Positions 24,459-42,085 of a DNA stretch of 64,000 nucleotides are shown here, piece by piece. Position 1 is the stretch's first letter. The number at the start of each line of letters is the position of its first letter. The stretch spans positions 1 through 64,000 of the forward strand of contig OZ219790.1 in the NCBI GenBank assembly GCA_964291215.2, in the 5' to 3' direction. The notes under the pieces were generated by a model. That model did not search any database. It was not told the origin of the DNA and saw only the letters and a list, made by a program, of their open reading frames with translations. A program made the translations under genes and the position numbers. The DNA comes from Alphaproteobacteria bacterium (lineage in GTDB: Bacteria > Pseudomonadota > Alphaproteobacteria > MPNO01 > UBA830).

Positions 24459-25957
24459 ATCGCGGTAGGGAACCGGGTTACCCCCCGCACAGAACCGGAC
24501 GTGCGCTGTTCGCTCCTCCCCTGACGACAAGGCGCTGGTTTGGCCACGGGCTCAGTGGGCAGCGGTGAGGGTGTCTATGTCCCCGGTGAAGTCCTTTTGG
24601 GAGCGTCGCCGAAGGGCACGCAGCTGTTTGCATTGGTGTATGAACTTCTGCAGGCTGCTTCCTGGAACGGCGTAGTAGCAGCCGTTGATAACTCACCACT
24701 TGGCCGTTTCGTGCCGGTTATCGTGCCACCGCCTGCGCAAGGCCTCCTTGATCCGCCGCAGGGTGCCCGTTTGCGACCGACCCTGAACCTGCCTTTCCTC
24801 GTCTGTTCGCAGAAGTGCGTCATGCCGAGGAAGTCGAACGTCTTGTCCGCGCTTCCGCGGTTTGCTCTGGCAAACCGACCGAACTCGATGATTTTCCGGG
24901 TGCAGTTCAAGTGGGCCAGTCTCTCCCCAAGGTCTCAGCGCCGCCCAGATGCTGAAAGCCGCACACGAAGTCGTCCGCATAATGATCGTGTCGCCTCCAG
25001 CCATCCGCTTGCGCCAGTGGTTCTGGAACCAGTCGTACGTAGTGCAGGTTCGCAAGGCATGGCGCCGCCCCTTGCGGTGTTCCCTTGCCAGTCGGTCCCT
25101 TCCATGACGCCGGCGTCACTTGATGATCAGACCCCCCGATCCGTTTCCCGAGCATCGCGACCAGATGGTCGAGATTGTCGAAGGGGCGTCAACGATCCAG
25201 TTGACCTTCCGCCGTTCCACCGTGACGGCGCATGATGCGCCCCGGCCGGAAGCCGTAACTAAACCCGAGGAACTCCGTCTCGCGGCACCAGAATCACACC
25301 GCCCGCTGAAGAATCTTGTCCGAGGCAAGTTGCCCTCCATCCTCCTTGGGTATGTAAACCCCGGAGGCGCCCGGTACGCACCCCTGTGCACACGGGCGTG
25401 CAGCAGTTCCACACCCTCCGCGTACGCTTGCCACACAACGCCCCGCCGCCGCGTCCTTCCTCAAGGAATGGAACGCATCGTGCAGAACGTCACGTGGTGG
25501 AGTAAAGACGCTCTTCCGGGTTCCTCTTCGCTACCTGCGTTCAGCCGCCTGTGACCCCCGCTTCTGCGCGCGGCGCGGGCCAACCGCATTGCCCTTCCCT
25601 CCAACAACTCCGCAGGCTCCGAAGAACCCTTGTTCGCCGCCTTCAGCGGTACTATGGCCGAATCTGACTTCTCGTTCATCATCGGTTTACGGAATTTCCT
25701 CTGCGGCCCCTCCACGACAGAGGGGCAAGACCTCCCAGGTCCCTGCTTCGGCCCTGGTTCTCGGACCCCGCGGAGCCCCCCTCACCAACGCGGCTCGTTG
25801 CCTTCGGCCACGACCTCGGCACTCCGGTTTCAAAGCATCTCGTGGCTCAATAGCCTGCCGCTCCCCAACGCTTCGCCTGGCGACGCATGGTTCACGGAGA
25901 AATTAGCCTCTCTCGGGACTTGCACCCGGCCACATTCCACCAGTTTGCCTGGCGCAC
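24459..25957 (-). mobile_element. Group II intron (degenerate)
   Basis: Minus strand starts GTGCG at 25957 and ends with domain V/VI GCACGTCCGGTTCTGTGCGGGGGG...CCCTACCGCGAT at 24459; removing it rejoins transposase D-P-E-A-L-Q. Confidence 0.9.
24560..25560 (-). pseudogene. ltrA: Intron reverse transcriptase/maturase, fragmented
   Basis: RVHRGAYRAPP, GTPQGA, YADDFVCGFQ, LELHPE, TFDFLGMTH in different frames; ends approximate. Confidence 0.85.
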
Positions 25958-26166
25958 CCGAGGCGCTTCAGGACGTGCCCGGCCGCGGGCTCGCCCGGGC
26001 GCTTACCGCCGACGGCAAGCGCATCCGCGGCGCCAACCGCCACCACGAGACCGTGGCCCTCACGCCTCCGGCGCACCCTTCGCGCTGTTGAACTTCGACG
26101 ACGGCGAGCTGGCGGCCACCTCCTCGAGCGCACCGATGTCCGTGGCAAGGTGATCACTTTCGACGC
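25958..26166 (+). pseudogene. ISAs1 transposase piece 2
   Basis: PEALQDV, ALTADGKRIRGANR, GKVITFDA. Confidence 0.8.
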
Positions 26167-26341
26167 ACCGATGGTGCCTAACCCGCAAGCGTCCGCCATC
26201 GCATGAACGGGCAGAAACCCCTGTGACGACAGAGCCTTATGGCCCGTCCCGCACCGCCGCGCGGCTTCCCCGACGAAACGCCGCCGCGGCTGCTTCCTGC
26301 ATTACCGCTCAGCCGCGCGGCCCGAACAGGGAGCCGCGACC

Positions 26342-28561
26342 ATGGCCGACAATCCGAAGTCCACCTTCGCCTGGCGCGTCCGCGCCGTCAAACTCCGAAC
26401 AACGAAATCCGCGACGATGTCGTGAGCGGACTAGCCCTGGCAGTCCTGGGACCCGGGAGACCAACGCCTGCATGGTCCGCAACCATATCCTGCCCGCCTT
26501 CGGTCATATGACGGTGGATGCCATCACGGTCGAACAGGTTCGGGACTGGTTCGCCTCCCCGAGCGACCGGCCCGGCGCCGCCAACCGCGCCATGCCGGTA
26601 CTGTCCATGATGATGCGCATGGCCGAGCTCTGGGGATACCGCGCCCATAACTCCAATCCCTGCAAGCATACCCGCCGCTAAAAAACAGGAGGTACTGTAA
26701 CTTGATGTCTGGAAATTTGTCTGAGGTTTGCGCTTTGAGGCGTTTCACTGGGGGGCTAGCCCCCCAGTGAAACGCGGCGCCATCGTACTATCCCATGGAG
26801 TTGCAAAACCTTCATGGAGGAAGCGAATGGACCTGCGACACACTACGACGATCGGGACTGTTTTGGAACATCTGATCGCAAACGGAGCAACGGATCTGGG
26901 GCGGGTCTTTGGCCAGCTCTTCGAGCTTGCGATGCAAATCGAGCGCGAGCAGTACTTGAAAGCGGGCCACCGGACGCCGGAGCGACAGGGCTATGCCAAC
27001 GGCTACAAGCGGATCGACACCCCCACTGTTACCGTTCAGGTGCCAAACGGTCACGGGGACGACCCGTCCCCAGTCGCTTGAACGCGGCCAGCGATCTTCT
27101 CGCGCCGTAGCCGAGATGTACATCAAGGGTGTTTCCACGCGGCAAGATGTAATGCGCGAGTTCGGGAGCCTGTCCTCTTCTCAGGTCAGCCGGGCCACCA
27201 GGTTGCTCGATGAAGAACTCGCCGCGCAACCGGCCCCTGATGAAATACCTGGATGCGCGCTACGAAAAAGCCCGCCATGACGGCGTTGTGCGCGATGTCG
27301 CAGTGCTCTCGGCCATCGGAATAGGGGCTGCAGGCACGTTCTGGGGCTCTCTGTGGCGCTCTCCGAGGCCGAGGTCCATTGGAGAGCCTTCCTGGAAAGC
27401 TTGCTAGCCCTGCATGGTACGACCTTCATCGTCTCGGATGCCGGGCTGAAAGCAGCACGACGCGCGGTGCTGGGCGCGGCGATGTGGCAGCGCTGCCAGT
27501 TCCACCTGGCGCAAAACGCCGTGCACCGAACAACGACATCAGGAAACGTATTGGAAAACAGCTCGGAGCCATGCGTCCTCACTCCAAACCGCCGAGGCGA
27601 ACTGGGCGCCCTCGTGGCCAGCTATCGCGACAAGCATCCAGGCTTCCTGGCTGGAAAACAATGCGGGGCTCGCTGTCTTCACCTTGCCCGATGCTCACCA
27701 CAAGCGTATGCGAACCTCGAACGGTATCGAGCGACCGATCCAGCAAGAGCTCAAGCGGCGCACCTCCAAAGTCAGGGTCTTTCCAAACCTCGCCTCGTTG
27801 GAGCGCCTCTCAACCGCGGTCCTCATCGACGAAAAATGGGAAACCGAAACCAAGATCAAATGGGAACAGCTCGATGACTGAGAGCTTCACGACAATTTCC
27901 AGACATCAGGTTGCGTAATCCTACAGGATGACGCCGAAGGAGCGGTTCCTTACGGCGGACGAAATGGACCGGCTCAACGCCGTGCTCGCCCGCGACGAGT
28001 TTTGGTGCCCGCACATCGTCGCCATCGTCCGCCTGCTGATGTTGACCGGCTGCCGCTTCGGCGAGATCGCCTCCCTCGAATGGGACTGGATCAGGGACAA
28101 GCGCATCCACCTTCCCGACTCGAAATCCGGGCCGCGCACGGTCTGGTTGTCGGACGCCGCGCGCGCCGTCATCGACGCCATCCCCCGATATAGCGCGGAT
28201 TGCCCGTATCTCTTGCCCGCCCGTTGGCCGACGCGGCCCATCGACAACATTGCCTTCCAAGTGGGACCGCATCCGCAACGAGGCCGGATTGCCCGGACTG
28301 CGCCTTCATGACCTGCGGCACACGTGGGCCTCGGTCGCCGCCATGAACGACGTGGACATGGTGACCGTCGCCAGGCTGCTCGGTCACGCCCTGGTCGAGA
28401 CCACGGAGCGCTATGTCCATCTCTCCGACCAGTCCGTCGCAGACGCCGCCGACCGGGTATCGAACCGCATCCATGCGGCCCTGGCCGGAAGGGAGGAAGG
28501 AAGCGGGCGGGCGCCCTGCGTCCGACCCAGGCTGACATCCAGCCCAAGGGAGCCCTCGGCT
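26342..28561 (+). pseudogene. Tyrosine recombinase 1 of element A (deleted, IS256-interrupted, frameshifted)
   Basis: Near-identical to 34470-35669; TGCRFGE, HDLRH, LLGH..TTERY. Confidence 0.88.
26691..27920 (+). mobile_element. IS256-family element, transposase pseudogene
   Basis: IRs sharing TGATGTCTGGAAATT; GYANGYK, AEMYIKGVSTR, WQRCQFH, RTSNGIER, FPN; TSD CTACAGGA at 27921-27928 (left copy has extra A's). Confidence 0.9.
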
Positions 28562-29754
28562 ATGTCCACATTTGACCTCACGCCGCGCCTTGCCCGCGAG
28601 GCCAGGTCCAACGGCAAGGACACCATTCTGTTCGACAAGGCGCTCACCGGTTTCGGGCTGCGTATCCATCCCTCGGGCCGCAAGGTCTGGATCGTCCAGG
28701 CCCGCATCGAGGGGCGGAGCCGGCGCATCGTCATTGCCCGGCACGGCGAGATGGAGTTGGCCCAAGCCCGCCGCCGCGCCCGCGACATGCTCGCGCGCAT
28801 CCGTGCGGGCGAGAACCCCGCCGACGACATCCGGAGGGAGAAGGAGACCCCAACCTTCCGGCAGTTCGCCGACGAGTATCTGCGGCGCTCGGACCCGCTC
28901 TGGAAGCCCTCCGGGCGCAGGACAGTGCGCATCTATCTCAAGGCCCGCATCTCCTGCCCGCATTCGGCGGGATACCGCTCGACAACATCGGACCCGAGGA
29001 TGTGGCCGTGTGGTTCGACGCGGCGAGCAGGGAAAAACCCGGCGCGGCCAATCGCGCCTTCGAGATATTGCGCGCCATGATGTTCCGGGCCGAGGAGTGG
29101 GGATTTCGCGAACGCGGAACCAACCCCTGTCTCGGTATCGCAAGGAACCTAGAGAAGAAGATTGCCCGGTTTCTCGACGCGGAAGAGCTGGCCCGGCTCG
29201 GGCGTGCACTCGACGCCAGCGAAGACCGCTGGCCCGAGGCCGTCGCCGCCATCCGCCTGCTCGCGCTTATCGGCTGCCGCCGCGGCGAGGTGCTCAACTT
29301 GCGCTGGCGCAACATCGGCGCGGTCGCCTTGAACCTCGGCGATTCGAAAACTGGGCCCCGCACGGTTCCGCTCGGCGAGGCCGCGCGTGCACTCATCAAG
29401 GCGCTGCCCGGCCCCCGCACGCCTTCCTGTTCCCGAAGAACGCCGGACGGCAGAACCCGCACAAAATCGTCGCCTGCTGGCGCGCCGTCTGCGAAGACGC
29501 GAAGCTCGGCAGGCTGCGCCTGCACGACCTCCGCCACACGGCGGCCAGCCACGCCGTCATGGCGGGCGAAAACCTGCCCATGGTCGGCAAATTGCTTGGC
29601 CACCGGCGTCATCGCACGACGGCAGGCTATGCCCACCTCGCCGATACCCATCTCGTCGAGGCGGCCGAAAAGGTCGGGAGCGCCATTGCGGCGGCTATGT
29701 GGAAGGAGGAACGGCACCGCCGCCTCCCCATCCCCGCCCGTATCGCAGGCATGA
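28562..29754 (+). pseudogene. Tyrosine recombinase 2 of element A (frameshifted)
   Basis: GFGLRIHPSGRK arm domain, GCRRGE, HDLRH, LLGH..TTAGY; frameshifts near 28950 and 29420. Confidence 0.88.
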
Positions 29755-30003
29755 CCGCTGAAAGCATTGGGGGTCAAGCAAGGTTCCGTCGCCCGTGGCG
29801 TCGGATGACCCCGGGTATGCCGGGTGCGTGCAGCAGCCCAAGTCTCCACCAACTCCGACCGGTTGAGCAGCGGCCCGACCGTCCGCCGGTTGGGCGTGGC
29901 GTCTTCGGTCACGAACCGCAGGTCAAGCCGGCCGGCGCACAGCCGTTCGAGATCGCCGCGCATCTCCCGGCCCGGATCGGGCGAGGCCGCTTGGCCGCAC
30001 GGA

Positions 30004-31270
30004 TCAGTTCTTGTGGGCGCCGAAGGCACCGTCCATATGGCCCTCGGTTCCGTAGTACCGTAGTACGCGCTGAACCTGCCGTAGAGGCCGGCCGGTTGGC
30101 TGTTGGCGCCGCCCGGCGGCGTCCCCTTGCTGTTGTTGAAGAAGCTGATCCAGAGGGCTTTCGACGGGGTTGGGGCTCACGCCCTTCACCCCGTCGATGC
30201 TCCATGCTGTTATGCCATACCCGCTACTATAATCAATGTCGACCTGCTCCAGATCGACCTTCCAGTTGCGGCTCTGCCCGCCCACCATGAACTCGGTAAT
30301 CGTGACCGTCCCGATCGCGGTGCCGTCGCCGAAGGCGCGGTCACCGTGGCCTTGGCCGTCCACTTGCCGGCCTCGTCGGTCTGACTCTCCCGTTTCAGGG
30401 CATACATGCAGACCCCCGCCCCCGAGTAGGTCGCCGTGCCTGTCACCCCGGCGGTGACGGGTGCCGGGTCTTCGGCATACCATTCTTCATCTTCGGTATC
30501 CCGATACTGGCCATAGGCCAACTCCCTGAAGGCCAGCGTGCCGTTCTGCTTGTCCTTCCGCAACCACCAGCCGAAGTACGTGTACCTGTCGTCCGTTGTG
30601 CCGTCCGAGGCCGGCGCCTCAAGGTCCGCGTAGAGCACGAGGGTGTGTTCGTAGCTGTCGTCACTGCCGGTCGCGCGGGTGCCGGCCCATCCGTGGAGGG
30701 CAGGGAGCTTCACCGACGTCACGGGGATCTCCCCTCGGAACTCCAGCTCCCCATACTTCCCATCGTCGCGCACTTCGTCGTAGATCTTGAGGCCCATCGC
30801 CTTGCTGTGCACCGCCGAGGTAAAGTCCCATTCCTGATCGATGAGGAGTTGCCTGCTATCTTCGCCCGTGCCCACACTTCTGTGTTCGAGCGCGGCGAAC
30901 AGCTTGGCGACATCTAGGGAAGGCGTTGCCGGCGGAGGCGCACCGCCAGTCGAGGGCGTTCCATCATCCGGAGGCGTCAGCATCACCGTCGGCATAGGTG
31001 GCCGTCTTGTCGTCACCGACAGTGACCATGCAGTCCGCGCCGCCGGCCGGGCAGCTGTAGGTGAGATCGCCAAGCGTCCCGCTTTCGCCAGCGGCGATAG
31101 TCAAGGTCCCGGCCATGATCGCGGCCTCATCGAGGCTGGACAGGTCCAGAGGCTTCGGTGTCGGCATCACCGTCACGCTTGCCGTCCCGGACGACCCGCC
31201 GCCAGGGCCGCATGTTTCATCGTTCTCATCGAACCCTTCTCCTTCTCTCAGACCGGACCGACCGGGCAAA
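30004..31270 (-). pseudogene. Surface protein with TbpB-like C-terminal barrel (frameshifted)
   Basis: Joined frames: CPAGGADCMVTV, YTYFGWW, GTATYSG, C-terminal GHMDGAFGA. Confidence 0.55.
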
Positions 31271-31587
31271 CCGTTTGAACCGTTCCTGCGTTTCCCGAAC
31301 CGCCCTCAGAAGCCGAGCGTGATTCCGGTCACGAAGCCGGCGCCCTCGACAGTGCTGCCAGCGGTGCTTTTGCTCTCGTCTTCGGCGAACTTGCTGCGTT
31401 GCCTCTCGGCTATGATCAGCGAGTTCACTAGTCAATGCCCGGCGGCGCCTCCGTGCGCGGACATGCCCACCAAGATCATCGCGACCGCGCGCGCGAGTGA
31501 CTTGCTTCGCCTCCCCCATGCTGCCGGATGCCCGATGTCTTCCGGCATGGCGGCCGGGGCGAGGTCGTCACCCCGGCCGCCGAATCA

Positions 31588-33618
31588 CTAGGCGCCGAAA
31601 ACGAAGTCGAAGTCGTCGATGGTCAGGGAGCCCATGCTGGTGTCGAGCAGTGTGATGGTGTCTCCCGCATTGCCGTAGCCGATGACGGTATCGCGGCCGT
31701 CCTGGCGGATCTTCAGCGACTCGAAAGCGGCTTCGTCCGAGGTGTCGCCCGAAACGTTGAGATGAAGCTCGATTTTATCCGTCCACCCATTGGCCAGGGC
31801 CTTCTTCTCGGCCGCAACGTGATCTTCGTAAGTGGGCAAGTATCCGTCGCTGCCACTGAACCCGAAGCCGAAATCCTCGATCGTGTCCTGCCCGTCGCCC
31901 TCGTGGAACACGAAGGTCTCGGCCCCCCAGCTGCTCCCCATGGTGTCGTTGCCCTTGCCGCCAACCACGGTGTCGTCACCCCAGCTGCAGTGTATGGTGT
32001 CGTTGCCGGCCCCGCCGTAGATCTCGTCATCGCCCCAGCTGCCGTCCAGGGTGTCGTCGCCGGCCCCGCCGTGGAGGATATCGTCGCCCCAGCTACCTTT
32101 CAGGGTATCGTCGCCGGCCCCGCCGTGGAGGATATCGTCGCCCCAGCTACCTTTCAGGGTATCGTCGCCGGCATAGCCGTAGATGCATGCGTCCTCCCAG
32201 AAGCCTCTCAGGGTGTCGGCGCCGCTGGTGCCGTGGAGAGTGACGACGCAGTCGTGAATGCCGTCGCTGAAGATGTTCCCGATATCGAGAGGGTTGCCGC
32301 CGTCGTTGTCGTCATCCCTATCGTCCTCAACGTCGAGCGGACCATCGCCCGAAATGCCCGGGACCGTGTCCCCGCCGCCGTCATTGTTGGCATTCGGGTT
32401 GCCGCCGTCGTTGTCGTCATCCCTATCGTCCTCAACGTCGAGCGGACCATCGCCCGAAATGCCCGGGACCGTGTCCCCGCCGCCGTCATTGTTGGCATTC
32501 GGGTCGCCGCCGTCATTGTTGGCATTCGGGTCGCCGCCGTCGTTGTTGGCATTCGGATCGCCGCCGTCGTTGTCGCTCGTACTGGCGCCGTACACGACCG
32601 TTTCACTGCCGCCAGCAGGCAGGATGAAGTCGTTCGCATCCAGGCTGTCTGCCGACACGCCCGACAGCGTGATGGTATCGCCGGCGTTGCCGTAGCGAAT
32701 GACGGTATCGGCGCCGTCCTGCTCGATGACCAGCGCCTCGAACCCGCCGGTCACGCCATCAAGGCGGATCTCGTCGCCCGCCCCGAAATCGGTGATCGTG
32801 TCGGCGCCGTCTCCTGCCTCGAACACGAAGGTGTCGTCGCCGCGGCCACCCGTCAGCGTATCGTCGCCCGCGCCGCCGATCAGCGTGTCGGAGCCCTTGC
32901 CGCCCCTCAGCGTATCGTCGCCCGCGCCGCCTTTCAGCGTGTCGGAGCCCTTGCCGCCCCGAAGGGTGTCGCCGCCATCACCACCTGTCAGCGTGTCATC
33001 ATCCATGCCGCCCTTCAGGGTGATCCCGTCGCTGCCGCCCGTCTGCGTGCTCTCGCCGGGGCCCTTCGGCGCATCGCCGGACGTGCCGTCCGGCGGCGCA
33101 CTCTGTGCAAGAGCGTCCTCGTCGCCATCTTCTGGCGGAACCGTCTCCACGGGCAGAAACCGGAAGTCGTCCGCGCCCAGGGAGGTCGCCGTCACGTACT
33201 CCAGCGTGATCTTGTCGCCATCACCGTAGCGGATGACGGTATTGGAGCCTTCCTGCTCGATCACCAGATCCCCGAAACCGCCGGGCACGCCGGCGATCTC
33301 GATGATGTCGCCGGCCTCGAAACCGGTGATGCGGTCGGCGCCGTCCCCGACCGCGAACACGAAGGTGTCCGCCCCCATGCCGCCATAGAGGTAGTCGTTG
33401 CCTCGGCCGCCGGTCAGCGTGTCGTCGCCCTGACCGCCGAACAGGCTGTCGATGCCGTCACCCCCCTCGAGCGTGTCGTCCCCGTTGCCGCCATACAGCG
33501 TGTCGACACCGCCGCCGCCGGACAGCGTGTCGTCGCCAAGGCCGCCATCCAGCGTGTCATCGCCGATACCACCCGTCAGTGTGTCGTCGCCGGCCCCGCC
33601 GGTTTGCTCGATAGCCAT
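31588..33618 (-). CDS. RTX/hemolysin-type Ca-binding repeat protein (676 aa)
   Basis: Many GGxGDDTL nonamers in three blocks, each followed by DTFVF..G.D.ITDF..DTVIRYG; GGGAG RBS before MAIEQ. Confidence 0.9.
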   Translation of the reverse strand: MAIEQTGGAGDDTLTGGIGDDTLDGGLGDDTLSGGGGVDTLYGGNGDDTLEGGDGIDSLFGGQGDDTLTGGRGNDYLYGGMGADTFVFAVGDGADRITGFEAGDIIEIAGVPGGFGDLVIEQEGSNTVIRYGDGDKITLEYVTATSLGADDFRFLPVETVPPEDGDEDALAQSAPPDGTSGDAPKGPGESTQTGGSDGITLKGGMDDDTLTGGDGGDTLRGGKGSDTLKGGAGDDTLRGGKGSDTLIGGAGDDTLTGGRGDDTFVFEAGDGADTITDFGAGDEIRLDGVTGGFEALVIEQDGADTVIRYGNAGDTITLSGVSADSLDANDFILPAGGSETVVYGASTSDNDGGDPNANNDGGDPNANNDGGDPNANNDGGGDTVPGISGDGPLDVEDDRDDDNDGGNPNANNDGGGDTVPGISGDGPLDVEDDRDDDNDGGNPLDIGNIFSDGIHDCVVTLHGTSGADTLRGFWEDACIYGYAGDDTLKGSWGDDILHGGAGDDTLKGSWGDDILHGGAGDDTLDGSWGDDEIYGGAGNDTIHCSWGDDTVVGGKGNDTMGSSWGAETFVFHEGDGQDTIEDFGFGFSGSDGYLPTYEDHVAAEKKALANGWTDKIELHLNVSGDTSDEAAFESLKIRQDGRDTVIGYGNAGDTITLLDTSMGSLTIDDFDFVFGA
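32291..32572. repeat. Intragenic tandem repeats: 2 x 105 bp plus about 3 x 27 bp
   Basis: 32291-32395 duplicated at 32396-32500, followed by DPNANNDGG units. Confidence 0.9.
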
Positions 33619-33652
33619 TGCAATACACTCCCGATTTCTTTCAAGGTGGTAC

Positions 33653-33681
33653 ATTCTACCCCCCCCCCCCCCCATCATCAA
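33653..33681 (-). promoter_or_regulatory. Sigma70-like promoter with G15 tract in the spacer
   Basis: Minus strand TTGATG-AT(G)15-TAGAAT, 17-bp spacer, 34 bp upstream of the RTX start codon. Confidence 0.75.
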
Positions 33682-33789
33682 GCAAGTCGAGAAATTTTTT
33701 TGCCTGTTCGACCGCAGGAGATGGTGGGCGGTCTTGTGTTCCGGCGTGTTCGGTTGTCCGGCTGCCGGGGTCCGGCGCACTTGACTGGC

Positions 33790-34020
33790 AGCAGGCGCGA
33801 CAGCGTTCCGCGCCGCCTCACGTTCCAACCCGCATCGTCCATGCTCTCAAGTTCGCCCGGGTGCGGCGGGTTCTACATCGGACCGACGCGATCGCCAGCA
33901 ACATCGTTCATGGTCATCGCTCCCTTTCTGTCAGCGACAGTCGATCAGGTCCACGGCCTCGCCGTCCTCGAAGCGGAACACCACGCGCCATTTGTCGGAA
34001 ACGCTACACTGGCCCGTACG
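33790..34020 (-). pseudogene. higBA remnant of element A
   Basis: WRVVFRFEDGEAVDLID identical to 40945-41000; deleted higA fragments. Confidence 0.8.
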
Positions 34021-34033
34021 GCCGCTGACGTTA

Positions 34034-34289
34034 CAGGCCGGGCAAATGACGCTGCCGATGAACGGGACAGCGTACATTGCACCATTCCCTCGTGCTTCCT
34101 GTAGCGCCGCCCGGAAGCCGCGCGGCGGTTCGCAGGATTGTCTCTGCAAGTGCGCGGCGGGCGCTGCCGCTCAAGCGCCGCTCGGGCTGAATGCCGATGA
34201 CACAACGGCTTGCATCGCCCGACGGGTTGAGCGGTCAGGAAGCGCGATTGCAACACTCTTCTCGGCGTGGTGGTTTTCACACCCGACGC
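34034..34289. repeat. Conserved right end of element A
   Basis: Collinear high-identity copy at 41320-41573. Confidence 0.9.
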
Positions 34290-34469
34290 GCCAAGGGCGC
34301 AAATCCCGCCAGCGCCCGCCATCGCATGAACGGGCAGAAACCCCTGTGACGACAGGGCCTTATGGCCCGTCCCGTCCCGCACCGCCGCGCGGCTTCCCCG
34401 ACGAAACGCCGCCGCGGCTGCTTCCTGCATTACCGCTCAGCCGCGCGGCCCGAACAGGGAGCCGCGATC

Positions 34470-36845
34470 ATGGCCGAAAGGTCCACCTTCGCCCGGCGCG
34501 TCCGCGCCGCCAAACCCCGAACAACGGGGTACGAAATCCGCGACGATGTCGTGAGCGGACTCGCGCTGACGATCCAGCCTACCGGAGTCCGGACCTTCTT
34601 CCTCGCCCGCATGGTGCGCGGGCGCAGGCGCTACGCCACCATCGGCAGCGCCGAGGCCATCCCAGAGGCGCGGCGCGAGGCCCGCAGGCTCATCGCCAGC
34701 TATCCGGCGAAGACGGACAACGGACCCCGCACGCCGGGACACCCGATGGACGCCTTCGCCGCCGAGTTCCTCGACCGGCAGGCCCGGCACTGGAAGCCCT
34801 GGACCCTGGAGACCAACGCCTGCATGGTCCGCAACCATATCCTGCCCGCCTTCGGTCATATGACCGTGGACGCCATCACGGTCGAACAGGTTCGGGACTG
34901 GTTCGCCTCCCTGAGCGACCGGCCCGGCATCGCCAACCGCGCCATGCCGGTGCTGTCCATGATGATGCGCATGGCCGAGCTCTGGGGATACCGCGCCCAT
35001 AACTCAAATCCCTGCAGTAACACCAGGCGATACCGGATGCAGGCGAAGGAGCGGTTCCTGACCGCCGACGAGATGGCCCGGCTCAACGCCGTGCTGACCC
35101 GCGACGAGTTCTGGTGCCCGCATATCGTCGCCGTCATTCGTTTGCTGATGCTGACCGGCTGCCGCTTCAGCGAGATCGCCTCCCTCGAATGGGACTGGAT
35201 CAGGGACAAGCGCATCCACCTTCCCGACTCGAAATCCGGGCCGCGCACGGTCTGGCTGTCGGACGCCGCGCGCGCCGTCATCGACGCCATCCCCCGATAT
35301 AGCGCGGATTGCCCCTATCTCTTTCCCGCCCGTCCGCCGACGCGGCCCATCGACAACATTGCCTTCCGGTGGGACCGCATCCGCAACGAGGCCGGATTGC
35401 CCGGACTGCGCCTTCATGACCTGCGGCATACGTGGGCCTCGGTCGCCGCCATGAACGACGTGGACATGGTGACCGTCGCCAGGCTGCTCGGTCACGCCCT
35501 GGTCGAGACCACCGAACGCTACGTCCATCTCTCCGACCAATCCGTCGCCGACGCCGCCGACCGGGTATCGAACCGCATCCATGCGGCCCTGGCCGGAAGG
35601 GAGGAAGGAAGCGGGCGGGCGCCCTGCGTCCGACCCAGGCTGACATCCATCCCAAGGGAGCCCTCGGCCATGTCCACATTTGACCTCACGCCGCGCCTTG
35701 CCCGCGAGGCCAGGTCCAACGGCAAGGACACCATCCTGTTCGACAGGACGCTCGCCGGTTTCGGGCTGCGTATCCATCCCTCGGGCCGCAAGGTCTGGAT
35801 CGTCCAGGCCCGCATCGAGGGGCGGAGCCGCCGTATCGTCATTGCCCGGCACGGCGAGATGGAGTTGGCCCAAGCCCGCCGCCGCGCCCGCGACATGCTC
35901 GCGCGCATCCGTGCGGGCGAGAACCCGGCCGACGACATCCGAAGTGAAAGGGAGACCCCGACCTTCCGGCAGTTCGCGAACGAGTATCTGCGGCGCTGCG
36001 AACCGCTCTGGAAGCCCTCCGGGCGCAGGACAGTGCGCATCTATCTCAAGGCCCGCATCCTGCCCGCTTTCGGCGGCATGCCGGTGGACCGTGTCGGACC
36101 CGAGGATGTCGCCGCGTGGTTCGACGCGGCGAGCAGGGACAAGCCCGGCGCGGCCAATCGCGCCTTCGAGATATTGCGCGCGATGATGTTCCGGGCCGAG
36201 GAATGGGGATTGCGCGAACGCGGCTCAAACCCCTGTCTCGGCATCGCCAGGAACCCGGCGAAGAAGGTTGCCCGGTTCCTCGACGCGGAAGAGCTGGCCC
36301 GGCTCGGGCGCGCGCTCGACGACCACCAGGACCGATGGCCCGAGGCCGTCGCCGCCATCCGCCTGCTGGCGCTTACCGGCTGCCGCCGCAGCGAGGTGCT
36401 CAACCTGCGCTGGCGCAACATTGGCGCGGACGCCTTGAACCTCGGCGATTCGAAAACCGGCCCGCGCGCCGTGCCGCTCGGCGAGGCCGCGCGGGCGCTC
36501 ATCGAGGCGCTGCCCGGCCTCCGCGACCAGGACGCGTTCCTGTTCCCGCGCCATGCCGAAGGCCGGGGCGCCAGCAGCCTCGCGACCTGCTGGCGCACGG
36601 TCTGCGAGGATGTCAGGCTCGGCAGGGTCCGCCTGCACGACCTGCGCCACACCGCAGCGAGCCACGCCGTCATGGCGGGCGAAAACCTGCCCCTGGTCGG
36701 CAAGCTGCTCGGCCACCGCAGGCATCGTACGACGGCAGGCTACGCCCACCTCGCCGATACCCATCTCGTCGAGGCGGCGGAAAAAGTCGGGAACATCATT
36801 GCGCAGGCGATGGCTTACAGCCATCGTTCGCAATCCTTGTCGTAA
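34470..36845 (+). CDS. Two tyrosine recombinases in one ORF (791 aa; internal start 35670)
   Basis: Two arm-binding domains and two R..HxLRH..LGH..Y sets; no stop in the linker; AAGGGAG before the second ATG. Confidence 0.88.
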   Translation: MAERSTFARRVRAAKPRTTGYEIRDDVVSGLALTIQPTGVRTFFLARMVRGRRRYATIGSAEAIPEARREARRLIASYPAKTDNGPRTPGHPMDAFAAEFLDRQARHWKPWTLETNACMVRNHILPAFGHMTVDAITVEQVRDWFASLSDRPGIANRAMPVLSMMMRMAELWGYRAHNSNPCSNTRRYRMQAKERFLTADEMARLNAVLTRDEFWCPHIVAVIRLLMLTGCRFSEIASLEWDWIRDKRIHLPDSKSGPRTVWLSDAARAVIDAIPRYSADCPYLFPARPPTRPIDNIAFRWDRIRNEAGLPGLRLHDLRHTWASVAAMNDVDMVTVARLLGHALVETTERYVHLSDQSVADAADRVSNRIHAALAGREEGSGRAPCVRPRLTSIPREPSAMSTFDLTPRLAREARSNGKDTILFDRTLAGFGLRIHPSGRKVWIVQARIEGRSRRIVIARHGEMELAQARRRARDMLARIRAGENPADDIRSERETPTFRQFANEYLRRCEPLWKPSGRRTVRIYLKARILPAFGGMPVDRVGPEDVAAWFDAASRDKPGAANRAFEILRAMMFRAEEWGLRERGSNPCLGIARNPAKKVARFLDAEELARLGRALDDHQDRWPEAVAAIRLLALTGCRRSEVLNLRWRNIGADALNLGDSKTGPRAVPLGEAARALIEALPGLRDQDAFLFPRHAEGRGASSLATCWRTVCEDVRLGRVRLHDLRHTAASHAVMAGENLPLVGKLLGHRRHRTTAGYAHLADTHLVEAAEKVGNIIAQAMAYSHRSQSLS

Positions 36846-36890
36846 AGTCATGAAACTGTGTCCTGATCTACACGTTATGATACATTCGTC

Positions 36891-37703
36891 TTACCGAGGC
36901 AAGTCATAATACCAATTCACGTTCTGGGAGCTAACCATAACAACCCGATCCCAGAAGTCGAAATCCTGATCCCGGACAAACGACAATTCATGCTCCGAAA
37001 GCATCTGCATTGGCGCGAGGCAAACGTGGTCAACGAGAATAAGCCACCAGCTTTCATATGCTCCAATCTTTTTCTGTTCGCGAATTTTTTTCGACTTTTC
37101 ACGAATTATGTTTTGGGCGCTTATTTTCATTTCGTCAGCTACGATAATACCTTTCCCATCCGACACATTTGACACGAAGAACTTTTCCGGGCTATGAGGA
37201 ACCTCTGTCAGATCAAGGCAAATGCCGCATTCCAGACAGAGATGAGGATACCCAATCTCATCCAAACTTTGTTCGGCGTGCCTGCTGGAATCGAAGTGCC
37301 TTGCCCACATGCCTTTAATCACACTGTCGTCATATGGCTTCAAGAGTGGCTCCAGCGCATCCGATATTTGGGTTTTAACTGTCCTGCGATTTGGTAGCCG
37401 CACGGAGAAGTCGTACTCGCAATCGATGTTCCAACTCCGTCCTTCATTTCCGGGTGACCCAAGTTGCTCAATTGTTTTTTTGATCTGATCTGTCAGCGGT
37501 ATCCGTACCTCCTCTTCTCCCTTGGAATGGTTGTCAGAGCCACCGTTTATCCTTTGGTTTAGCCGAGTCACTTCCACCGCCAATTTCCCATCCACAACGA
37601 AATCAGGCGGATTGTTGCACTGCTTCCGAATATCACCGTATCCTTGGGCTTTCAACCACTTCTGGGCAATGACTTCATCGTCGTTTTGGCGCTGCCTGCT
37701 CAT
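36891..37703 (-). CDS. Hypothetical low-GC protein, putative PD-(D/E)xK-fold nuclease
   Basis: PPDFVVDGKLAVEVT motif; visibly AT-richer than its flanks. Confidence 0.55.
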   Translation of the reverse strand: MSRQRQNDDEVIAQKWLKAQGYGDIRKQCNNPPDFVVDGKLAVEVTRLNQRINGGSDNHSKGEEEVRIPLTDQIKKTIEQLGSPGNEGRSWNIDCEYDFSVRLPNRRTVKTQISDALEPLLKPYDDSVIKGMWARHFDSSRHAEQSLDEIGYPHLCLECGICLDLTEVPHSPEKFFVSNVSDGKGIIVADEMKISAQNIIREKSKKIREQKKIGAYESWWLILVDHVCLAPMQMLSEHELSFVRDQDFDFWDRVVMVSSQNVNWYYDLPR

Positions 37704-37737
37704 TTCAAACTCCGTATTGCGGCCTGTTTTGCCCAAG

Positions 37738-40566
37738 TCACCTTGAGGCTGATCCGCGCACCCGATGCCTGGAGCGTCGTTTCGGTTGCCGGCGCATGAC
37801 AGTATCCAGAGGCACGCGCATGCTCTCATACAGCATGAACAGGTGCTCGACGCGTTCGCGCTCGGAGGAGAACCGCCTCTGCCGGTATAGCCGGTCCACC
37901 GCTCGGTCGAGGCGCGTGTGGGCGCGGCGGAGGGTTGGAGGCATGAGATCGGGGTCGTAGATGTCCGCCAGGGTTGCGTCCGGGTGGGCGGCACGGGCGT
38001 CGAGGACGGCCTGGGCCAGCGGCTCCAGATTCGACAACAGGTCCGCCTCGCCGGAAGCGAAGCCGGGCGGGGTCGGGAAGGTGTTATAGACGAGACCGAT
38101 GGAATAACGGTAATCGCTCTTGAGCCGCCCACCGACATGGCGCAACCATGCCATGTGCATCGCCGAGGTGAGCAGTGCGAAGTCGGTCAGGGTCGCGTTT
38201 TCCAGAACGCGGACGAGGTTGCTGGGAATCGTTGGAGGCTCCAGCCAGCCGATGGGCGCGTATTCTCGCCGCTCCGAACTGACCTCGGGGATCACCAGGA
38301 ACGGCGAGGTGGGGATGACGTTGACATGGTAGAGCGTCGGTGTCGTCGCGAGTTTGCGTGTCGGCGCGCTCTTGCTGGCCTCGCGGTAGGAGCGAACGGC
38401 AGCGATCCGCTTACGGACGCGCGGCAACTGCGCCAGCACCCCGGGCGATGTGTCTTGCAAGGCCAGAATCCACCGCTCGCCGCCTTGCAGATACTCGCGA
38501 GCGCCGACATAGGGGCGCAAATATGGCGCGGCGTCCGGTTCCGCTTCCAATAGTTCGGCGCGTTCCGCCGCGTCGAAGATGTAGTTGCCGCCGTCAATGG
38601 GCTTGGAGCCGATGATCAGTCGTCCCATCCCGTTGATCGGCGCGCTTTCCTCCCGCACCACCAGATGCGGGTCCGACAGCCCGCCCGCATCGAACAGATA
38701 GGGTGACAGCGCCCCGTGGCGGCTTTCCTCCGGGTCGCCGCTGATGTCGGGATAGCTGAACAGGCGCTTTTCGGCCGGCGCGTCCTCCCGGCGGTCGAGG
38801 CCGAGGATGACGACATGCACATGCGCCCTGCCGCGCGCATCCGATCCCCATGCGAAGGTCCGGTGCGCGAACGCAATCTCCAGCTTGCCGCGCCCGAACA
38901 GCACCGGCCATAGCTGCGCGACCTGCTCGCCCTGGGTGATCGAGTTGGTCGCGACGAAGCCGACCCGGGCTTCGCCGCCCTGCACATACTTCCCTGCCTT
39001 GATGAACCATGCGGCGACATAATCGAGCGTGCCGCCGCTCTTGCCGAGGGCCGCGACCCCGCGCACCTGCGCACGCTGATCCGGCGTCTGGTACTTCGCG
39101 CCGACGAACGGCGGATTGCCCAGCACGAACGAACACTCGCCCGGCGGCAGCAATTCGGACCAGTCGGTTTCCAGCGCGTCGCCGTGGACGATCTGCGGCG
39201 ACTTCTCGAGCGGGATACGCGCGTAGCTCCGGCCGAACTCCAGACTCAGCCGGTTGTTCATGATGTGGTCCATCATCCACAACGCGGTCTCCGCGATCCG
39301 GGTCGGGAACTCGCCAAGCTCGATCCCGTGAAACTGGTCCACCTCCACCACCGACTGCCATGCGGTGTCGAGCACTGCCTGCCCGGTCGCCGCCGTCGCC
39401 TCCCGAATCTCGCGAATGACCTCGATTTCCAGCAGCCGCAATTCCCGGTAGGCGATGATGAGGAAGTTGCCGCAGCCGCACGCCGGGTCGAAAAACGTCA
39501 GGCGGCCGAGCTTCGCCTGGAACTGGCGCAGCGCCGCGAGGCGGCCCCGGCGCGCTTTCACCCGCCCGAACTCCGCGCGCAGGTCGTCCATGAACAGCGG
39601 CTCCATCACCTTGAGGATGTTCTTCTCGGTCGTGTAGTGCGCCCCTTGGGCGCGGCGCTCCGCCGGGTCCATCACCGACTGGAACAGCGCACCGAAGATC
39701 GCGGGAGAGATGTTCGACCAGTCGAAGCGGCAGGCGTCCAGCAACGCCCCGCGCATCGCCGTGTCGAACGAGAAGGTCCGCAGATGCCCCTCGAACAGGT
39801 CGCCGTTGACATAGGGAAAACGCGCCAGGTCCTCGTCGAGCGTCGCAGCGCGCTCGTCCTCCGGCGTATCGAGCACCTCGAACAGTTGCGCGAGCCACGG
39901 TCCGAGATCGGCCCCGTCCTCGCCGGTGCGCGTTTCGATGAAGTCGAGGAAGATGTCGCGCGGCTCGAACACCCCGGTGTCGTCGGCGAACATGCAAAAC
40001 ACTACCCGCACAAGGAAGCGTTCCAGATCGTGGCCCCCGTGTCCGGCACCGGCGAGCGCGTCGTGCAGCCGCCCGACCAGCTCGGCGGCTTCGATGTTCG
40101 CCGGGTCCTGGTCCCGGAACGTCCGGCGCTGCACGCCCAGGATGAAGCCGAACGACTCGACATGCGCGGGCAGGTCCGCCAGCGGGAAGACAACGGTCCC
40201 CCGCTCGTCGAGATCATGAAGCTCGAAGGTCCGGAAGTCGCTCACCAGGATGAAGCGCGGGCGCTCGCGGTCCGGCAGCGCGTCGAAATACTCCCCGGCC
40301 TGTTCGTACGCTCTCCGGAGATCGCGCCCGGCGCTCTTCTGCTCGACGATGAGCACGCCCGGCCAGAACAGGTCGATGAAGCCCGAACGGTTGTCCAGCT
40401 TGGAGACGTGCTGCTCGTAGCGCGCGACGTTGCGCCGCCGCACGCCGAACACGTCGAAGAAGGCGTTGTAGAAGCTCTGCGTCTCGCCCTTCTCATAGGC
40501 CGCATCGCACCACTCTTCGGCGAAGGCCGCCGCCCGCGCCCGCACCTCGTTCCACGACAGACGCAT
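37738..40566 (-). CDS. MmeI-like type IIL restriction-modification enzyme
   Basis: GFIDLFWPGVLIVEQKS nuclease, GAHYT, FFDPACGCGNF, GNPPF, GRLKSDYRYS, TLADIYDPDLMP. Confidence 0.92.
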   Translation of the reverse strand: MRLSWNEVRARAAAFAEEWCDAAYEKGETQSFYNAFFDVFGVRRRNVARYEQHVSKLDNRSGFIDLFWPGVLIVEQKSAGRDLRRAYEQAGEYFDALPDRERPRFILVSDFRTFELHDLDERGTVVFPLADLPAHVESFGFILGVQRRTFRDQDPANIEAAELVGRLHDALAGAGHGGHDLERFLVRVVFCMFADDTGVFEPRDIFLDFIETRTGEDGADLGPWLAQLFEVLDTPEDERAATLDEDLARFPYVNGDLFEGHLRTFSFDTAMRGALLDACRFDWSNISPAIFGALFQSVMDPAERRAQGAHYTTEKNILKVMEPLFMDDLRAEFGRVKARRGRLAALRQFQAKLGRLTFFDPACGCGNFLIIAYRELRLLEIEVIREIREATAATGQAVLDTAWQSVVEVDQFHGIELGEFPTRIAETALWMMDHIMNNRLSLEFGRSYARIPLEKSPQIVHGDALETDWSELLPPGECSFVLGNPPFVGAKYQTPDQRAQVRGVAALGKSGGTLDYVAAWFIKAGKYVQGGEARVGFVATNSITQGEQVAQLWPVLFGRGKLEIAFAHRTFAWGSDARGRAHVHVVILGLDRREDAPAEKRLFSYPDISGDPEESRHGALSPYLFDAGGLSDPHLVVREESAPINGMGRLIIGSKPIDGGNYIFDAAERAELLEAEPDAAPYLRPYVGAREYLQGGERWILALQDTSPGVLAQLPRVRKRIAAVRSYREASKSAPTRKLATTPTLYHVNVIPTSPFLVIPEVSSERREYAPIGWLEPPTIPSNLVRVLENATLTDFALLTSAMHMAWLRHVGGRLKSDYRYSIGLVYNTFPTPPGFASGEADLLSNLEPLAQAVLDARAAHPDATLADIYDPDLMPPTLRRAHTRLDRAVDRLYRQRRFSSERERVEHLFMLYESMRVPLDTVMRRQPKRRSRHRVRGSASR

Positions 40567-40603
40567 CAGTCAGACCCGACCGCACCGACGGCGGAAGCCT
40601 CGA

Positions 40604-40927
40604 TCATGCGTACAACGCACCCGCACGCCGTCCGGCGGCAACCCGGTCCCGGCGCGCCTGTGCAAGCTCGTAGCTCGCCTGCATCCGCATCCAGTGTTCG
40701 GCGGTTCCCCAGCCGATATCCTCCAGCGCCAGCGCCATTTTGGCCGACACCCCCGCCTTGCCGTTCAGCAGGCGCGACAGCGTTCCGCGCTCGCAACCGA
40801 GCCGAGCCGCCGTACCGGTCACGTTCCAGCCCACATCGTCCATGCTCTCGCGGATCAGTTCGCCCAGGTGCGGCGGGTTCCGCATCGGACCGACGCGCTC
40901 GTTTTCAATGTCGTTCATGGTCAGCAC
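40604..40927 (-). CDS. higA: HigA antitoxin
   Basis: NPPHLGELI, HTH, LSRLLNGKAGVS..MAL, WMRMQASY. Confidence 0.9.
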   Translation of the reverse strand: MLTMNDIENERVGPMRNPPHLGELIRESMDDVGWNVTGTAARLGCERGTLSRLLNGKAGVSAKMALALEDIGWGTAEHWMRMQASYELAQARRDRVAAGRRAGALYA

Positions 40928-40936
40928 CCCATTCGG

Positions 40937-41203
40937 TCAGTGATAGTCGATCAGGTCCACGGCCTCGCCGTCCTCGAAGCGGAACACCACGCGCCAGTTG
41001 CCCGAGACGCGGACGCTCCACTGGCCCGCACGACCGCCCTTCAGGGGATGCAGCCGGAAGCCCGGCGCGTCGGCGCTGCCCGGATGCGTTGCCTCTTGCA
41101 GCCGAAACAGGATGCGCTTCAGTCGTGGCGCGAGAGTAGCAGGCACCCGTACGGGATTGTCCCGCTCGTGCAGCGCCCGCAATCCCTTGTGCCTGATCTT
41201 CAT
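40937..41203 (-). CDS. higB: HigB (RelE-family) toxin
   Basis: HKGL, RLHPLKG, WSVRVSGNWRVVFRF, terminal DYH. Confidence 0.92.
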   Translation of the reverse strand: MKIRHKGLRALHERDNPVRVPATLAPRLKRILFRLQEATHPGSADAPGFRLHPLKGGRAGQWSVRVSGNWRVVFRFEDGEAVDLIDYH

Positions 41204-41319
41204 GATTGACTATGGCGCGCCACGCCACGCGCCGCAAGCATCCGCCGCGTCGTCGCGTTCAGCGGCAATGCTGCGGAGCGGTAGCGGGAGCGTCCGGGCC
41301 CGCACCACCGCCGACGGCG

Positions 41320-41573
41320 CAGACCGGGCGAATGACGCTACCGATGAACGGGACTTCGCGCATTGCATCGTTCCCTCGTGCTTCCTATAGTGCCGCTTGG
41401 AAGCCGCGCGGCGGTTCGCAGGACTGTCTTCGCAAGTGCGCGGCGGGCGCTGTCGCTCAAGCGCCGCTCGGGCTGAATGCCGGTGGCACAACGGCTTGCA
41501 TGGCCCGACGGGTTGAGCGGTCAGGAAGCGCGATTGGAACGCCCTTCGGCGCGGTGGTTCACACACCCGACGC
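41320..41573. repeat. Conserved right end of element B
   Basis: Copy of 34034-34289. Confidence 0.9.
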
Positions 41574-42085
41574 GCTGCACACGACGCTGGCGACGCTGAT
41601 CACCCGGCGCTGCGGCGCAGACCAGGTCTTCCCGGTCAAGGGCGCCCGAAACCTTCGACGGCATCGACCGGGAGACGGATGCCAGCGGCCGCTTCAGGGA
41701 GGCAAGGCCCGCCTCGAGCAGCGCTCGATACGTGCCGCTCGAGGACCTGATCAACTACCCCGGCCAGACCGCCCGCATGCTACCGCAAGCCGCCGGGAAA
41801 GAGCGCCAGCGGCGCAGCGAGCGGCAACGACTGCACCGGTACATCATCACCTCGATCGATGCGCAACACGCGTCGCCAGAGGAACTGCTGCGGCCGCGGG
41901 CTGTGGAAAACATGAACCACCGAGACTGCGTCTTCGGCGAGGACGCCTGCCTGACCCGCAAACCGCGCCAGCCTCGACAACATCGCGCTCGCGGTGATCT
42001 TCGCCAACCGACGCGAGAGCCTTGCCGAAACACGGCAGCGGCTCGACCGCCGGGAAGCCGTCGCAGCCCTGAGCGCCAATGGTGT
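41574..42085 (+). pseudogene. ISAs1 transposase piece 3
   Basis: [34 protein letters not shown]; end approximate. Confidence 0.82.

Follow-up and report, generated by a model that had tools for sequence, protein, structure and literature searches.

What kind of element lies inside the ISAs1-family transposase gene of this alphaproteobacterial genome, and why is it found there? The window, that is, the whole stretch of 64,000 nucleotides analysed (C1:1-64000, C1 being contig OZ219790.1), belongs to a 6.15-Mb genome with 64% GC in two contigs, C1 and C2 (genome G000). Between two remnants of the transposase gene it holds two successive units, here called elements A and B, each with two tyrosine recombinase genes, int1 and int2. 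An initial annotation had proposed that these units use a conserved motif of the insertion sequence as their attachment site in the target (attB). Our analysis rather indicates, with a probability that we put at about 0.8, that A and B are two-integrase elements devoid of a relaxase, whose ends together form a site resembling the nick site (nic) of a MOB_F origin of transfer (oriT), that the family usually inserts at such a site, that the ISAs1 gene is likely a chance look-alike of it, and that the elements likely borrow the relaxase of their host. This view draws on sequence comparison and gene context.

The ends of the elements were indeed as first described. The hexamer CGACGC was found at 26161, 34284 and 41568; the left ends of A and B aligned without gaps over the first 36 bp past the hexamer (27 of 36 bases identical) and were then about 99% identical over 107 bp, and the right ends, for which some 250 bp of likeness had been claimed, shared 87.5% identity over 279 bp, a similarity that stops at the hexamer. 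Deletion of the insert had been predicted to restore the transposase reading at its 'xTxDA' motif, the Asp of which we take to be a DDE catalytic residue. The search for empty ISAs1 copies bore this out, with alleles elsewhere in the genome that read straight across the site at C1:2048787 and C2:461982. Because these alleles read through, and because the C2 copy exceeds the NF033564 cut-off for ISAs1 transposases, the 15.4-kb insertion is real. The ISAs1 copy split by A and B is itself heavily decayed.

An alignment search with int1 provided the comparison set, namely 80 of 101 confirmed loci from species genomes, 27 from metagenomes and three distant ones from viral contigs. The 107 related loci and the window allowed 93 left ends to be bounded, together with 53 right ends that match them, several copies coming from the same genome and not being independent. 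Their junctions share a consensus made of TCACACC, a spacer of 4-5 nt (CGAC, CCAC, TGCC, TGAC, GGAC or GGAAC) and a 5-bp stem with a loop of 2-3 nt, which covaries at stem positions 3-5; the left arm is exactly CACACC in 75 of the 93 left ends. Over 1.63 Mb of related loci, this motif was found at 98 sites on the integrase strand and at none on the opposite strand, against six in shuffled sequence. The element's left end opens with its own 5-bp hairpin and its right end closes with the nic-side arm. A hairpin is kept in the right flank in 35 of 52 cases and, since the stems of the two sides coincide in no more than 7 of these 35, it lies outside the crossover, which the aligned ends place within about 6 bp between arm and hairpin, in or beside the CGACGC hexamer; the same count rules out that the 5' arm of the hairpin is copied from the target. 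Spacers agree at both ends in 35 of 53 elements (shuffle mean 10.5). The ends of elements of the A and B type are mutually unlike and are not inverted repeats, their complementary blocks being internal, and Rfam held no family for the left or right end. A second hairpin lies about 10 nt deeper in the right end, as it does in host flanks. Since the right end shares with host left flanks (loci L053-L133) both a motif located some 100 bp away from the core and this second, covarying hairpin about 10 nt from the core, it may, as the likeness suggests, be derived from a copy of an oriT.

Read on its bottom strand, the junction is hairpin-G-N4-GTGT-G, in register with the nic of R388, given as hairpin, 8 nt and nick (PMC4814116, Table 1), and with that of F, whose nic region was compared in the form given in PMC3074121 (Table 1). 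As far as these tables go, the likeness to MOB_F origins extends to the hairpin, the 8-nt spacer to the predicted nick and the GCG-N4-GTGT core, and the sites of the family also stand beside a TrwC/TraI gene with a polarity away from the mobilisation (mob) genes. Unlike the origins of R388 and F, the core doubles here as the crossover site of integrases, and its nick is a predicted one.

Cultured plasmids offer filled and empty versions of this site. In Shewanella baltica, pSBAL17501 and pSBP2_mcr4 have a distantly related integrase pair, accompanied by restriction-modification or retron genes, which is flanked by the leading region on one side and by the 3' end of traI on the other; the site is empty in pS18501 and pS19501, and comparison of filled with empty plasmids yields a 12-bp repeat, CACACCCCACGC, which is the reverse complement of the F nic region. 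Plasmid pPHDD1 of Photobacterium damselae has the same layout next to traI, and the left hairpin of its element resembles that of F. The motif was present in three of four cultured MOB_F plasmids, downstream of mobF in two and upstream of it on the opposite strand in one. Among 15 plasmid regions with distant integrase pairs (36-41% identity), 9 had the motif at most 320 bp upstream of the pair, the int1 start being guessed in two unannotated records. On Photobacterium plasmids (L219:11689-12522 and L222:3218-4087), the integrase pair is directly followed by an annotated replication initiation protein.

A comparable neighbourhood was found in the genomes. A Toprim/YAcAr match lies upstream, on the same strand and pointing at the site, in 39 of 91 related left ends (67 of which have at least 3 kb upstream), and trwC lies downstream on the opposite strand in six and upstream in one; in the present genome, the motif follows 7 of 11 YAcAr-type matches. 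Forty TrwC loci were examined, out of 58 matches from five relatives. In the TrwC class of about 1000 aa, 17 of 26 loci carry the motif on the relaxase-coding strand past the 3' end of the gene, and 15 of these 17, by table reading, are empty sites followed on the far side, at a distance of about 1 kb, by a YAcAr gene. In a second TrwC class, of 1550-1870 aa (the 14 loci L184-L186 and L188-L198, with 20 kb taken per locus), the nic-like motif was not found apart from one poor match. One host displays an F-type transfer region in the order traF-traH-traG_N-T4CP-trwC, then the site, then YAcAr-Toprim-NADAR-AlkB-like-SSB pointing at the site, the latter genes presumably being, from their content, a leading region. 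The usual target of the family is likely the nick site of a MOB_F conjugative oriT, within conjugative elements.

From a mechanistic point of view, insertion at such a site leaves two direct oriT-like cores, one combining the nic half of the host with the hairpin of the element, the other the nic half of the element with the hairpin of the host. Because the element carries its own hairpin in the left end and its own nic half in the right end, both junctions and the predicted circle are oriT-like, and the right junction is a fresh target, hence tandems such as A-B. Nine of 92 left flanks indeed consist, according to clustering, of a same-type right end, as expected of tandem insertion, and the earlier description of a compact cargo element with two tyrosine recombinases, fixed ends, a short core including CGACGC, regeneration of its site and tandem arrays has held well. 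A may have arrived before B, B before A, or both together as a single AB circle. The recombinases, both catalytically complete, would divide the two unlike arms between them, and the excised circle would join right end to left end into an oriT core that the host TrwC/TraI could nick and export. The term non-conjugative, used initially, is appropriate inasmuch as no relaxase of their own was found in ORF (open reading frame) scans and the 2.94-kb copies hold only int1 and int2, but it misses that the element, even without a relaxase, is likely mobilisable.

The 4-nt spacer of the circle would, in this scheme, be taken from the left junction of the donor and end at the right junction of the new copy. 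Two copies that are 99.98% identical (L074 and L073) have the spacers TGAC/CGAC and CCAC/TGAC, which fits such a left-to-right footprint; L075 is also consistent, and is to be weighed beside L118, discussed below. More speculatively, the host relaxase itself could make the circle, starting at the right attachment site (attR) and stopping at the left one (attL), which would give the same left-to-right footprint; for F TraI, termination at an oriT core of 35 bp is reported for 80% of transconjugants (PMC3074121). The most complete version of this scheme is a tentative one: a 25-bp site would be att and oriT at once, the element would enter MOB_F oriTs between hairpin and nick, the relaxase would copy the element out as a single-stranded circle from attR to attL without any excisionase, the circle would be exported, and in the recipient an RNA pairing the right end with the left end would sense circularisation, switch on int1 and allow reinsertion into the next oriT.

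The competing explanation that best survives, possible but in our opinion the less probable one, is that the oriT-like site is only a conserved safe harbour, in which the elements excise and integrate by their own recombinases, travel as passengers of the host element, and have joined ends that do not work as an oriT. A short oriT core was reported to terminate F transfer but to be unable to initiate it (PMC3074121), streptococcal IME_oriT (integrative mobilisable elements inserted in oriT) were reported to require their own relaxase, without detected cis-mobilisation (PMC7563843), both according to the sections available, and no accessory-protein sites were mapped here. Such a view has nevertheless to be set against the fact that every left end keeps its own covarying hairpin, although this lies outside the crossover, that the right end keeps the nic-side arm together with the second hairpin some 10 nt in, like host flanks, and that close int1 relatives occur in metagenome-assembled genomes (MAGs) of many phyla.

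A candidate for the RNA that would sense circularisation lies in the ends themselves. The right end has a conserved promoter-like motif directed outwards, and the transcript predicted from it opens with a 16-nt block that is the complement of a left-end segment that otherwise pairs with the Shine-Dalgarno sequence (SD) of int1. In 17 elements, the predicted accessibility of this SD was 0.06 with the left end alone, 0.33 with the element's own right end and 0.09 with a shuffled right end; with the own right end, all 17 exceeded their value for the left end alone, and 14 of the 17 exceeded the value obtained with shuffles. More speculatively, the right-end promoter would read across the circle junction, and the RNA would free the int1 ribosome-binding site. 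This junction-sensing switch, which comes from folding models, appears rather doubtful. Long-range pairs between right and left ends show few two-sided changes, folding energies do not settle which strand is folded (-219.9 for the top against -226.9 for the bottom strand, with GT 92 against AC 48, a comparison biased by the method), and the ends in Shewanella share direct repeats instead of complementary blocks. The motifs could, instead, be arm-type sites.

Several other observations weigh against an oriT-targeting family. The motif was absent from 6 of the 15 distant plasmid regions, and a hairpin is missing from 17 of 52 right flanks; secondary sites or decay are therefore common. The outer junctions of the window are poor oriT cores, attR of B having no hairpin and attL of A having TTT where ACC is expected. 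Agreement of the spacers in 35 of 53 elements need not point to a homology requirement, since it could stem from each genome having one oriT variant and from copies that are not independent, and the right spacer of copy L118 has no matching donor among its siblings. Finally, no circle or clean excision joint was present among the joints listed for three read sets of one study, nor a circle joint at 99% likeness; contigs being prone to drop rare forms, the reads speak neither for nor against circles. A read joint, 26157-41580, was considered as an excision product and rejected, because it has three differing letters and matches deleted ISAs1 copies.

A host site for recombination or protein binding, with no more than a resemblance to nic, is an unlikely alternative for the motif found between trwC and the leading region. 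The long-TrwC class without the motif would suit such a site, as would the orientation of trwC, which points towards it and differs in this from R388, where we take trwC not to point at nic; but in Shewanella 12 of 12 bases equal the F nic region, in Cupriavidus pRK1-4 the motif precedes the mob operon and lies on the opposite strand, the polarity is constant in the three cultured MOB_F plasmids, the 3' side of the predicted nick always facing away from the mob genes, and no second nic-like motif was found upstream of trwC in the 40 TrwC loci.

The proposal that the conserved catalytic-codon motif of ISAs1 serves as attB has very little left in its favour. The insertion splits this motif cleanly and empty alleles exist, but when the flanks of related copies were tabulated, as had been recommended, only the window's own two of 146 were clearly ISAs1, none of the other 144 being so beyond one weak match of 28 residues (E 5e-4). 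Elsewhere in this genome, right ends that extend to the core break off at CACACC-CGAC-GC; what follows them is unrelated DNA or a related element's left end, in no case ISAs1, and about 35 further ISAs1 remnants of the genome are unoccupied. Moreover, the bottom strand of the motif resembles the nic consensus: the ISAs1 codons retain GC-GTCG-N3-GTGA, which would be enough for a secondary insertion. The ISAs1 gene of the window is thus likely a chance look-alike, occupied as a secondary site. Insertion at secondary sites is also reported for IME_oriT, in the portion consulted of PMC7563843. Another one is likely found in Vibrio europaeus, where the copy (L206, upstream of 9001) appears, by eye, to lie in an aldehyde-dehydrogenase-like frame at a degenerate core, its left end being the same as that of the V. 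crassostreae copy.

That the A/B tandem is an assembly duplication is very improbable. In its favour, A and B have in common an int1-int2 fusion that occurs in 1 of 76 pairs, within a stretch of 98% identity that spans it, and no read-derived contig was reported across the A/B junction; but A and B are only about 91% identical over the integrase region, their cargo is unrelated, the unique cargo of each is covered by contigs at 99-100% with a similar depth of about 40-50, and right-end/left-end tandems are found again in other genomes. The fusion alone could still be a polishing artefact.

Among known systems, the closest is the IME_oriT of Streptococcus and Staphylococcus, from which the family differs in target and gene set. 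As far as the consulted parts of PMC7563843 and PMC5704250 describe them, IME_oriT are likewise tyrosine-integrase elements located in the nic of a conjugative oriT, with variable cargo and occasional secondary sites; they target MobT oriTs in Firmicutes and have one integrase, an excisionase and their own Rep_trans relaxase needed for transfer, whereas the present family has two integrases and uses MOB_F-type sites in Proteobacteria and other phyla. Insertion in the nic region of an oriT (MOB_F, not MobT) is indicated for the family by sequence and gene context, the window copy being at a secondary site; neither a MobT/Rep_trans relaxase nor the combination of a single integrase with an excisionase was found. 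Unlike IME_oriT, the family rebuilds the nic core from its own ends.

The iOriTs, in the part of their description consulted (bioRxiv 10.64898/2026.01.13.699239), are likewise integrative, without relaxase or mating-pore genes, presumed to hitch-hike by oriT mimicry, and loaded with defence cargo. The present elements share their att boundaries, an integrase and the lack of relaxase and mating-pore genes, but the oriT of iOriTs lies inside the island, with a separate att and mostly one recombinase, whereas att and oriT core coincide here and the nic-like core arises only across junctions. SEs, GInts and Tn554 also have two tyrosine recombinases at one end and target specificity, and they copy the donor's left-flank spacer to the new right end, as may happen here; according to the available text of PMC10214605, SEs and GInts need the four genes IntA, Tfp, IntB and Srap, Tn554 needs TnpC, and SE ends are imperfect inverted repeats. 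The family here, by contrast, has only two equal-sized integrases with arm domains, asymmetric ends and an oriT-like target: the four core genes, imperfect terminal inverted repeats of 13-19 bp, and a tnpA-tnpB-tnpC set were all lacking, with no third conserved gene. Two recombinases and asymmetric ends likewise separate it from RIT elements. With regard to integrons, TIGR02249 scores were 27-29 bits against a cut-off of 265, and three junction sites occurred in 1 of 60 loci of at least 20 kb. Integron-like cassette arrays were rejected, an integrase following the right junction in only 2 of 47 loci and three-site loci being rare; the 'foreign ends' seen in the flanks correspond to one half each of the host site. 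The initial judgement that the element is neither RIT, Tn554 nor integron is in agreement with this gene content. IntSXT/P4-type integrases, in the section seen of PMC8138268, have the same Arm-DNA-bind_3, SAM-like and catalytic domains, the first being N-terminal here as well, but the integrases here form a coupled pair and are not at tRNA genes. In the open full-text literature, judged mostly by title and start of abstract, with supplements outside, no two-integrase element at a MOB_F oriT nic was described.

If this reading is true, oriT-targeting integrative elements are not confined to the MobT systems of Firmicutes but occur, in a minimal form with two genes, in F-type (MOB_F) conjugation as well, and conjugative elements of many phyla could receive restriction-modification, retron or toxin-antitoxin cargo by this route. 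Each insertion would moreover mark a MOB_F oriT to the base, including origins located downstream of the relaxase gene, and a two-gene integrase with a short conserved target could serve to tag conjugative plasmids. The filled and empty plasmids of cultured Shewanella make the whole model testable.

The family is widespread: record titles place int1 relatives in Alpha- and Gammaproteobacteria and in MAGs of Binatia, Acidobacteria, Nitrospirales and Thermodesulfobacteriota, with sponge-related names occurring among them, and viral contigs yielded just distant relatives with 28-30% identity. The window type of right end is present in 13 of 60 relatives. Integrases are paired in 76 loci, and int1 and int2 are the only conserved genes; the minimal copies, of 2.94 kb, leave space, judging from their length, for neither an excisionase nor a relaxase. 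Six such int1+int2-only copies of 2,948 bp, 100% identical, stand at six places in one genome, an identity from which their recent multiplication is evident. In a midpoint-rooted tree of 35 rows, int1 and int2 fall on opposite sides of one branch (support 85/80), which is only suggestive. Relatives G037, G043, G047 and G053 have 45-76 integrase matches per genome, with 13-22 TrwC matches (the TrwC search excluded G043), and several of their open frames of 792-870 aa hint at further int1-int2 fusions.

In the window, the 5' remnant of the decayed ISAs1-family gene (25961-26160, plus strand) ends in TCACTTT, which replaces the nic-side arm (consensus TCACACC), and the 3' remnant extends over 41574-42060 on the same strand. 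Element A is decayed, as seen from its sequence: int1 is cut by deletions and an IS256 insertion, int2 is frameshifted and the higBA genes are stumps. Its attL (26154-26177, plus strand) consists of a target-derived arm, the CGAC spacer and the element hairpin GCACC-GAT-GGTGC, a degenerate oriT-like core. The left end (26165-26341, plus) bears the hairpin, the blocks complementary to the right end and the int1 ribosome-binding region. On the plus strand follow int1 (26342-28489), disrupted by a decayed IS256 (Mutator-family) copy at 26691-27920, one among many in the genome, and int2 (28562-29726), in frame with the 3' part of int1. The cargo, on the minus strand, comprises a 287-aa ORF (30210-31073) without any matching Pfam or NCBIfam family, an RTX calcium-binding-repeat protein (31588-33828), whose start is uncertain and which scores under the RTX-toxin cut-offs, and truncated remnants of higA and higB (33777-34023). 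The right end (34011-34283, plus) has a degenerate outward sigma70-like promoter at 34077-34105 and terminates in the nic-side arm CACACC.

The A/B junction (34277-34300, plus) is a complete oriT-like core, TCACACC-CGAC-GCGCC-AAG-GGCGC, the bottom strand being predicted to be nicked between 34279 and 34278, and its spacer, CGAC, is the dominant one in this genome. After the left end of B (34288-34469, plus), int1 (34470-35597) is fused in frame with int2 (35670-36845) into a single frame of 791 codons with its ATG at 34470 (34470-36845, plus). The two parts, 39% identical, each have arm-binding, SAM-like and catalytic domains with the catalytic R, HxxR, H and Y motifs, and PF13356 (Arm-DNA-bind_3, which we take to be DUF4102) matches two stretches of the fused ORF. 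On the minus strand lie a 270-aa hypothetical ORF (36891-37703), an MmeI-like type IIL restriction-modification protein (37738-40566) with N, helicase-spacer, methyltransferase, target recognition and C domains, and the toxin-antitoxin pair higB (40937-41203) and higA (40604-40927), together 40604-41203. The right end (41297-41567, plus) combines the outward promoter-like TTGCAT-N17-TATAGT (41363-41391) with the nic-side arm, and attR (41562-41573, plus) reads CACACC-CGAC-GC, then ISAs1 sequence, without hairpin. The library scan of the window ORFs, outside which the 270-aa ORF of B stood, found no relaxase family, and no excisionase family was found in the scan. The unit order first described (ends, int1-int2, antisense cargo, higBA region) is common to A and B, but the genes are intact only in B, A having broken int1 and int2 and truncated higBA, and int1 continues in frame into int2 in both units; in related loci they are separate genes, usually overlapping, the fusion among the 76 pairs being the window's own. 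As the outer cores are poor and A is broken, the window locus is probably a dead end.

Relatives of B are found elsewhere in the genome. A further element at C1:2268593-2271635 has the cargo region of B (97% over 3 kb), and another, at C1:1003778-1005532, matches its right-hand 1.76 kb at 93%, a segment that takes in higBA as well as the right end. A further subfamily with two integrases (about 42% identity) begins at the same junction motif at C1:447831, C1:1975657, C2:3051020, C2:3229015 and C2:2222236, the member at C2:3229015 coming directly after a right end of the window type. Three integrase-like segments stand in a row at C1:174720-178037 and C1:887508-890794, with no junction motif in the 400 bp upstream. 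ISAs1 and IS256 are present genome-wide in dozens of copies, each with different small deletions (about 90-97% identity); a deletion exactly spanning the nic-like site is common to most ISAs1 copies, for which real decay and an assembly effect are both possible. Abutting the ISAs1 remnant on the left is a decayed group II intron (24575-25960, minus strand), with an Rfam group-II-D1D4-6 match at 25756-25922 and fragments that we take, from their motif, to be reverse transcriptase-like; at position 25961, sequencing reads show other sequences joined.

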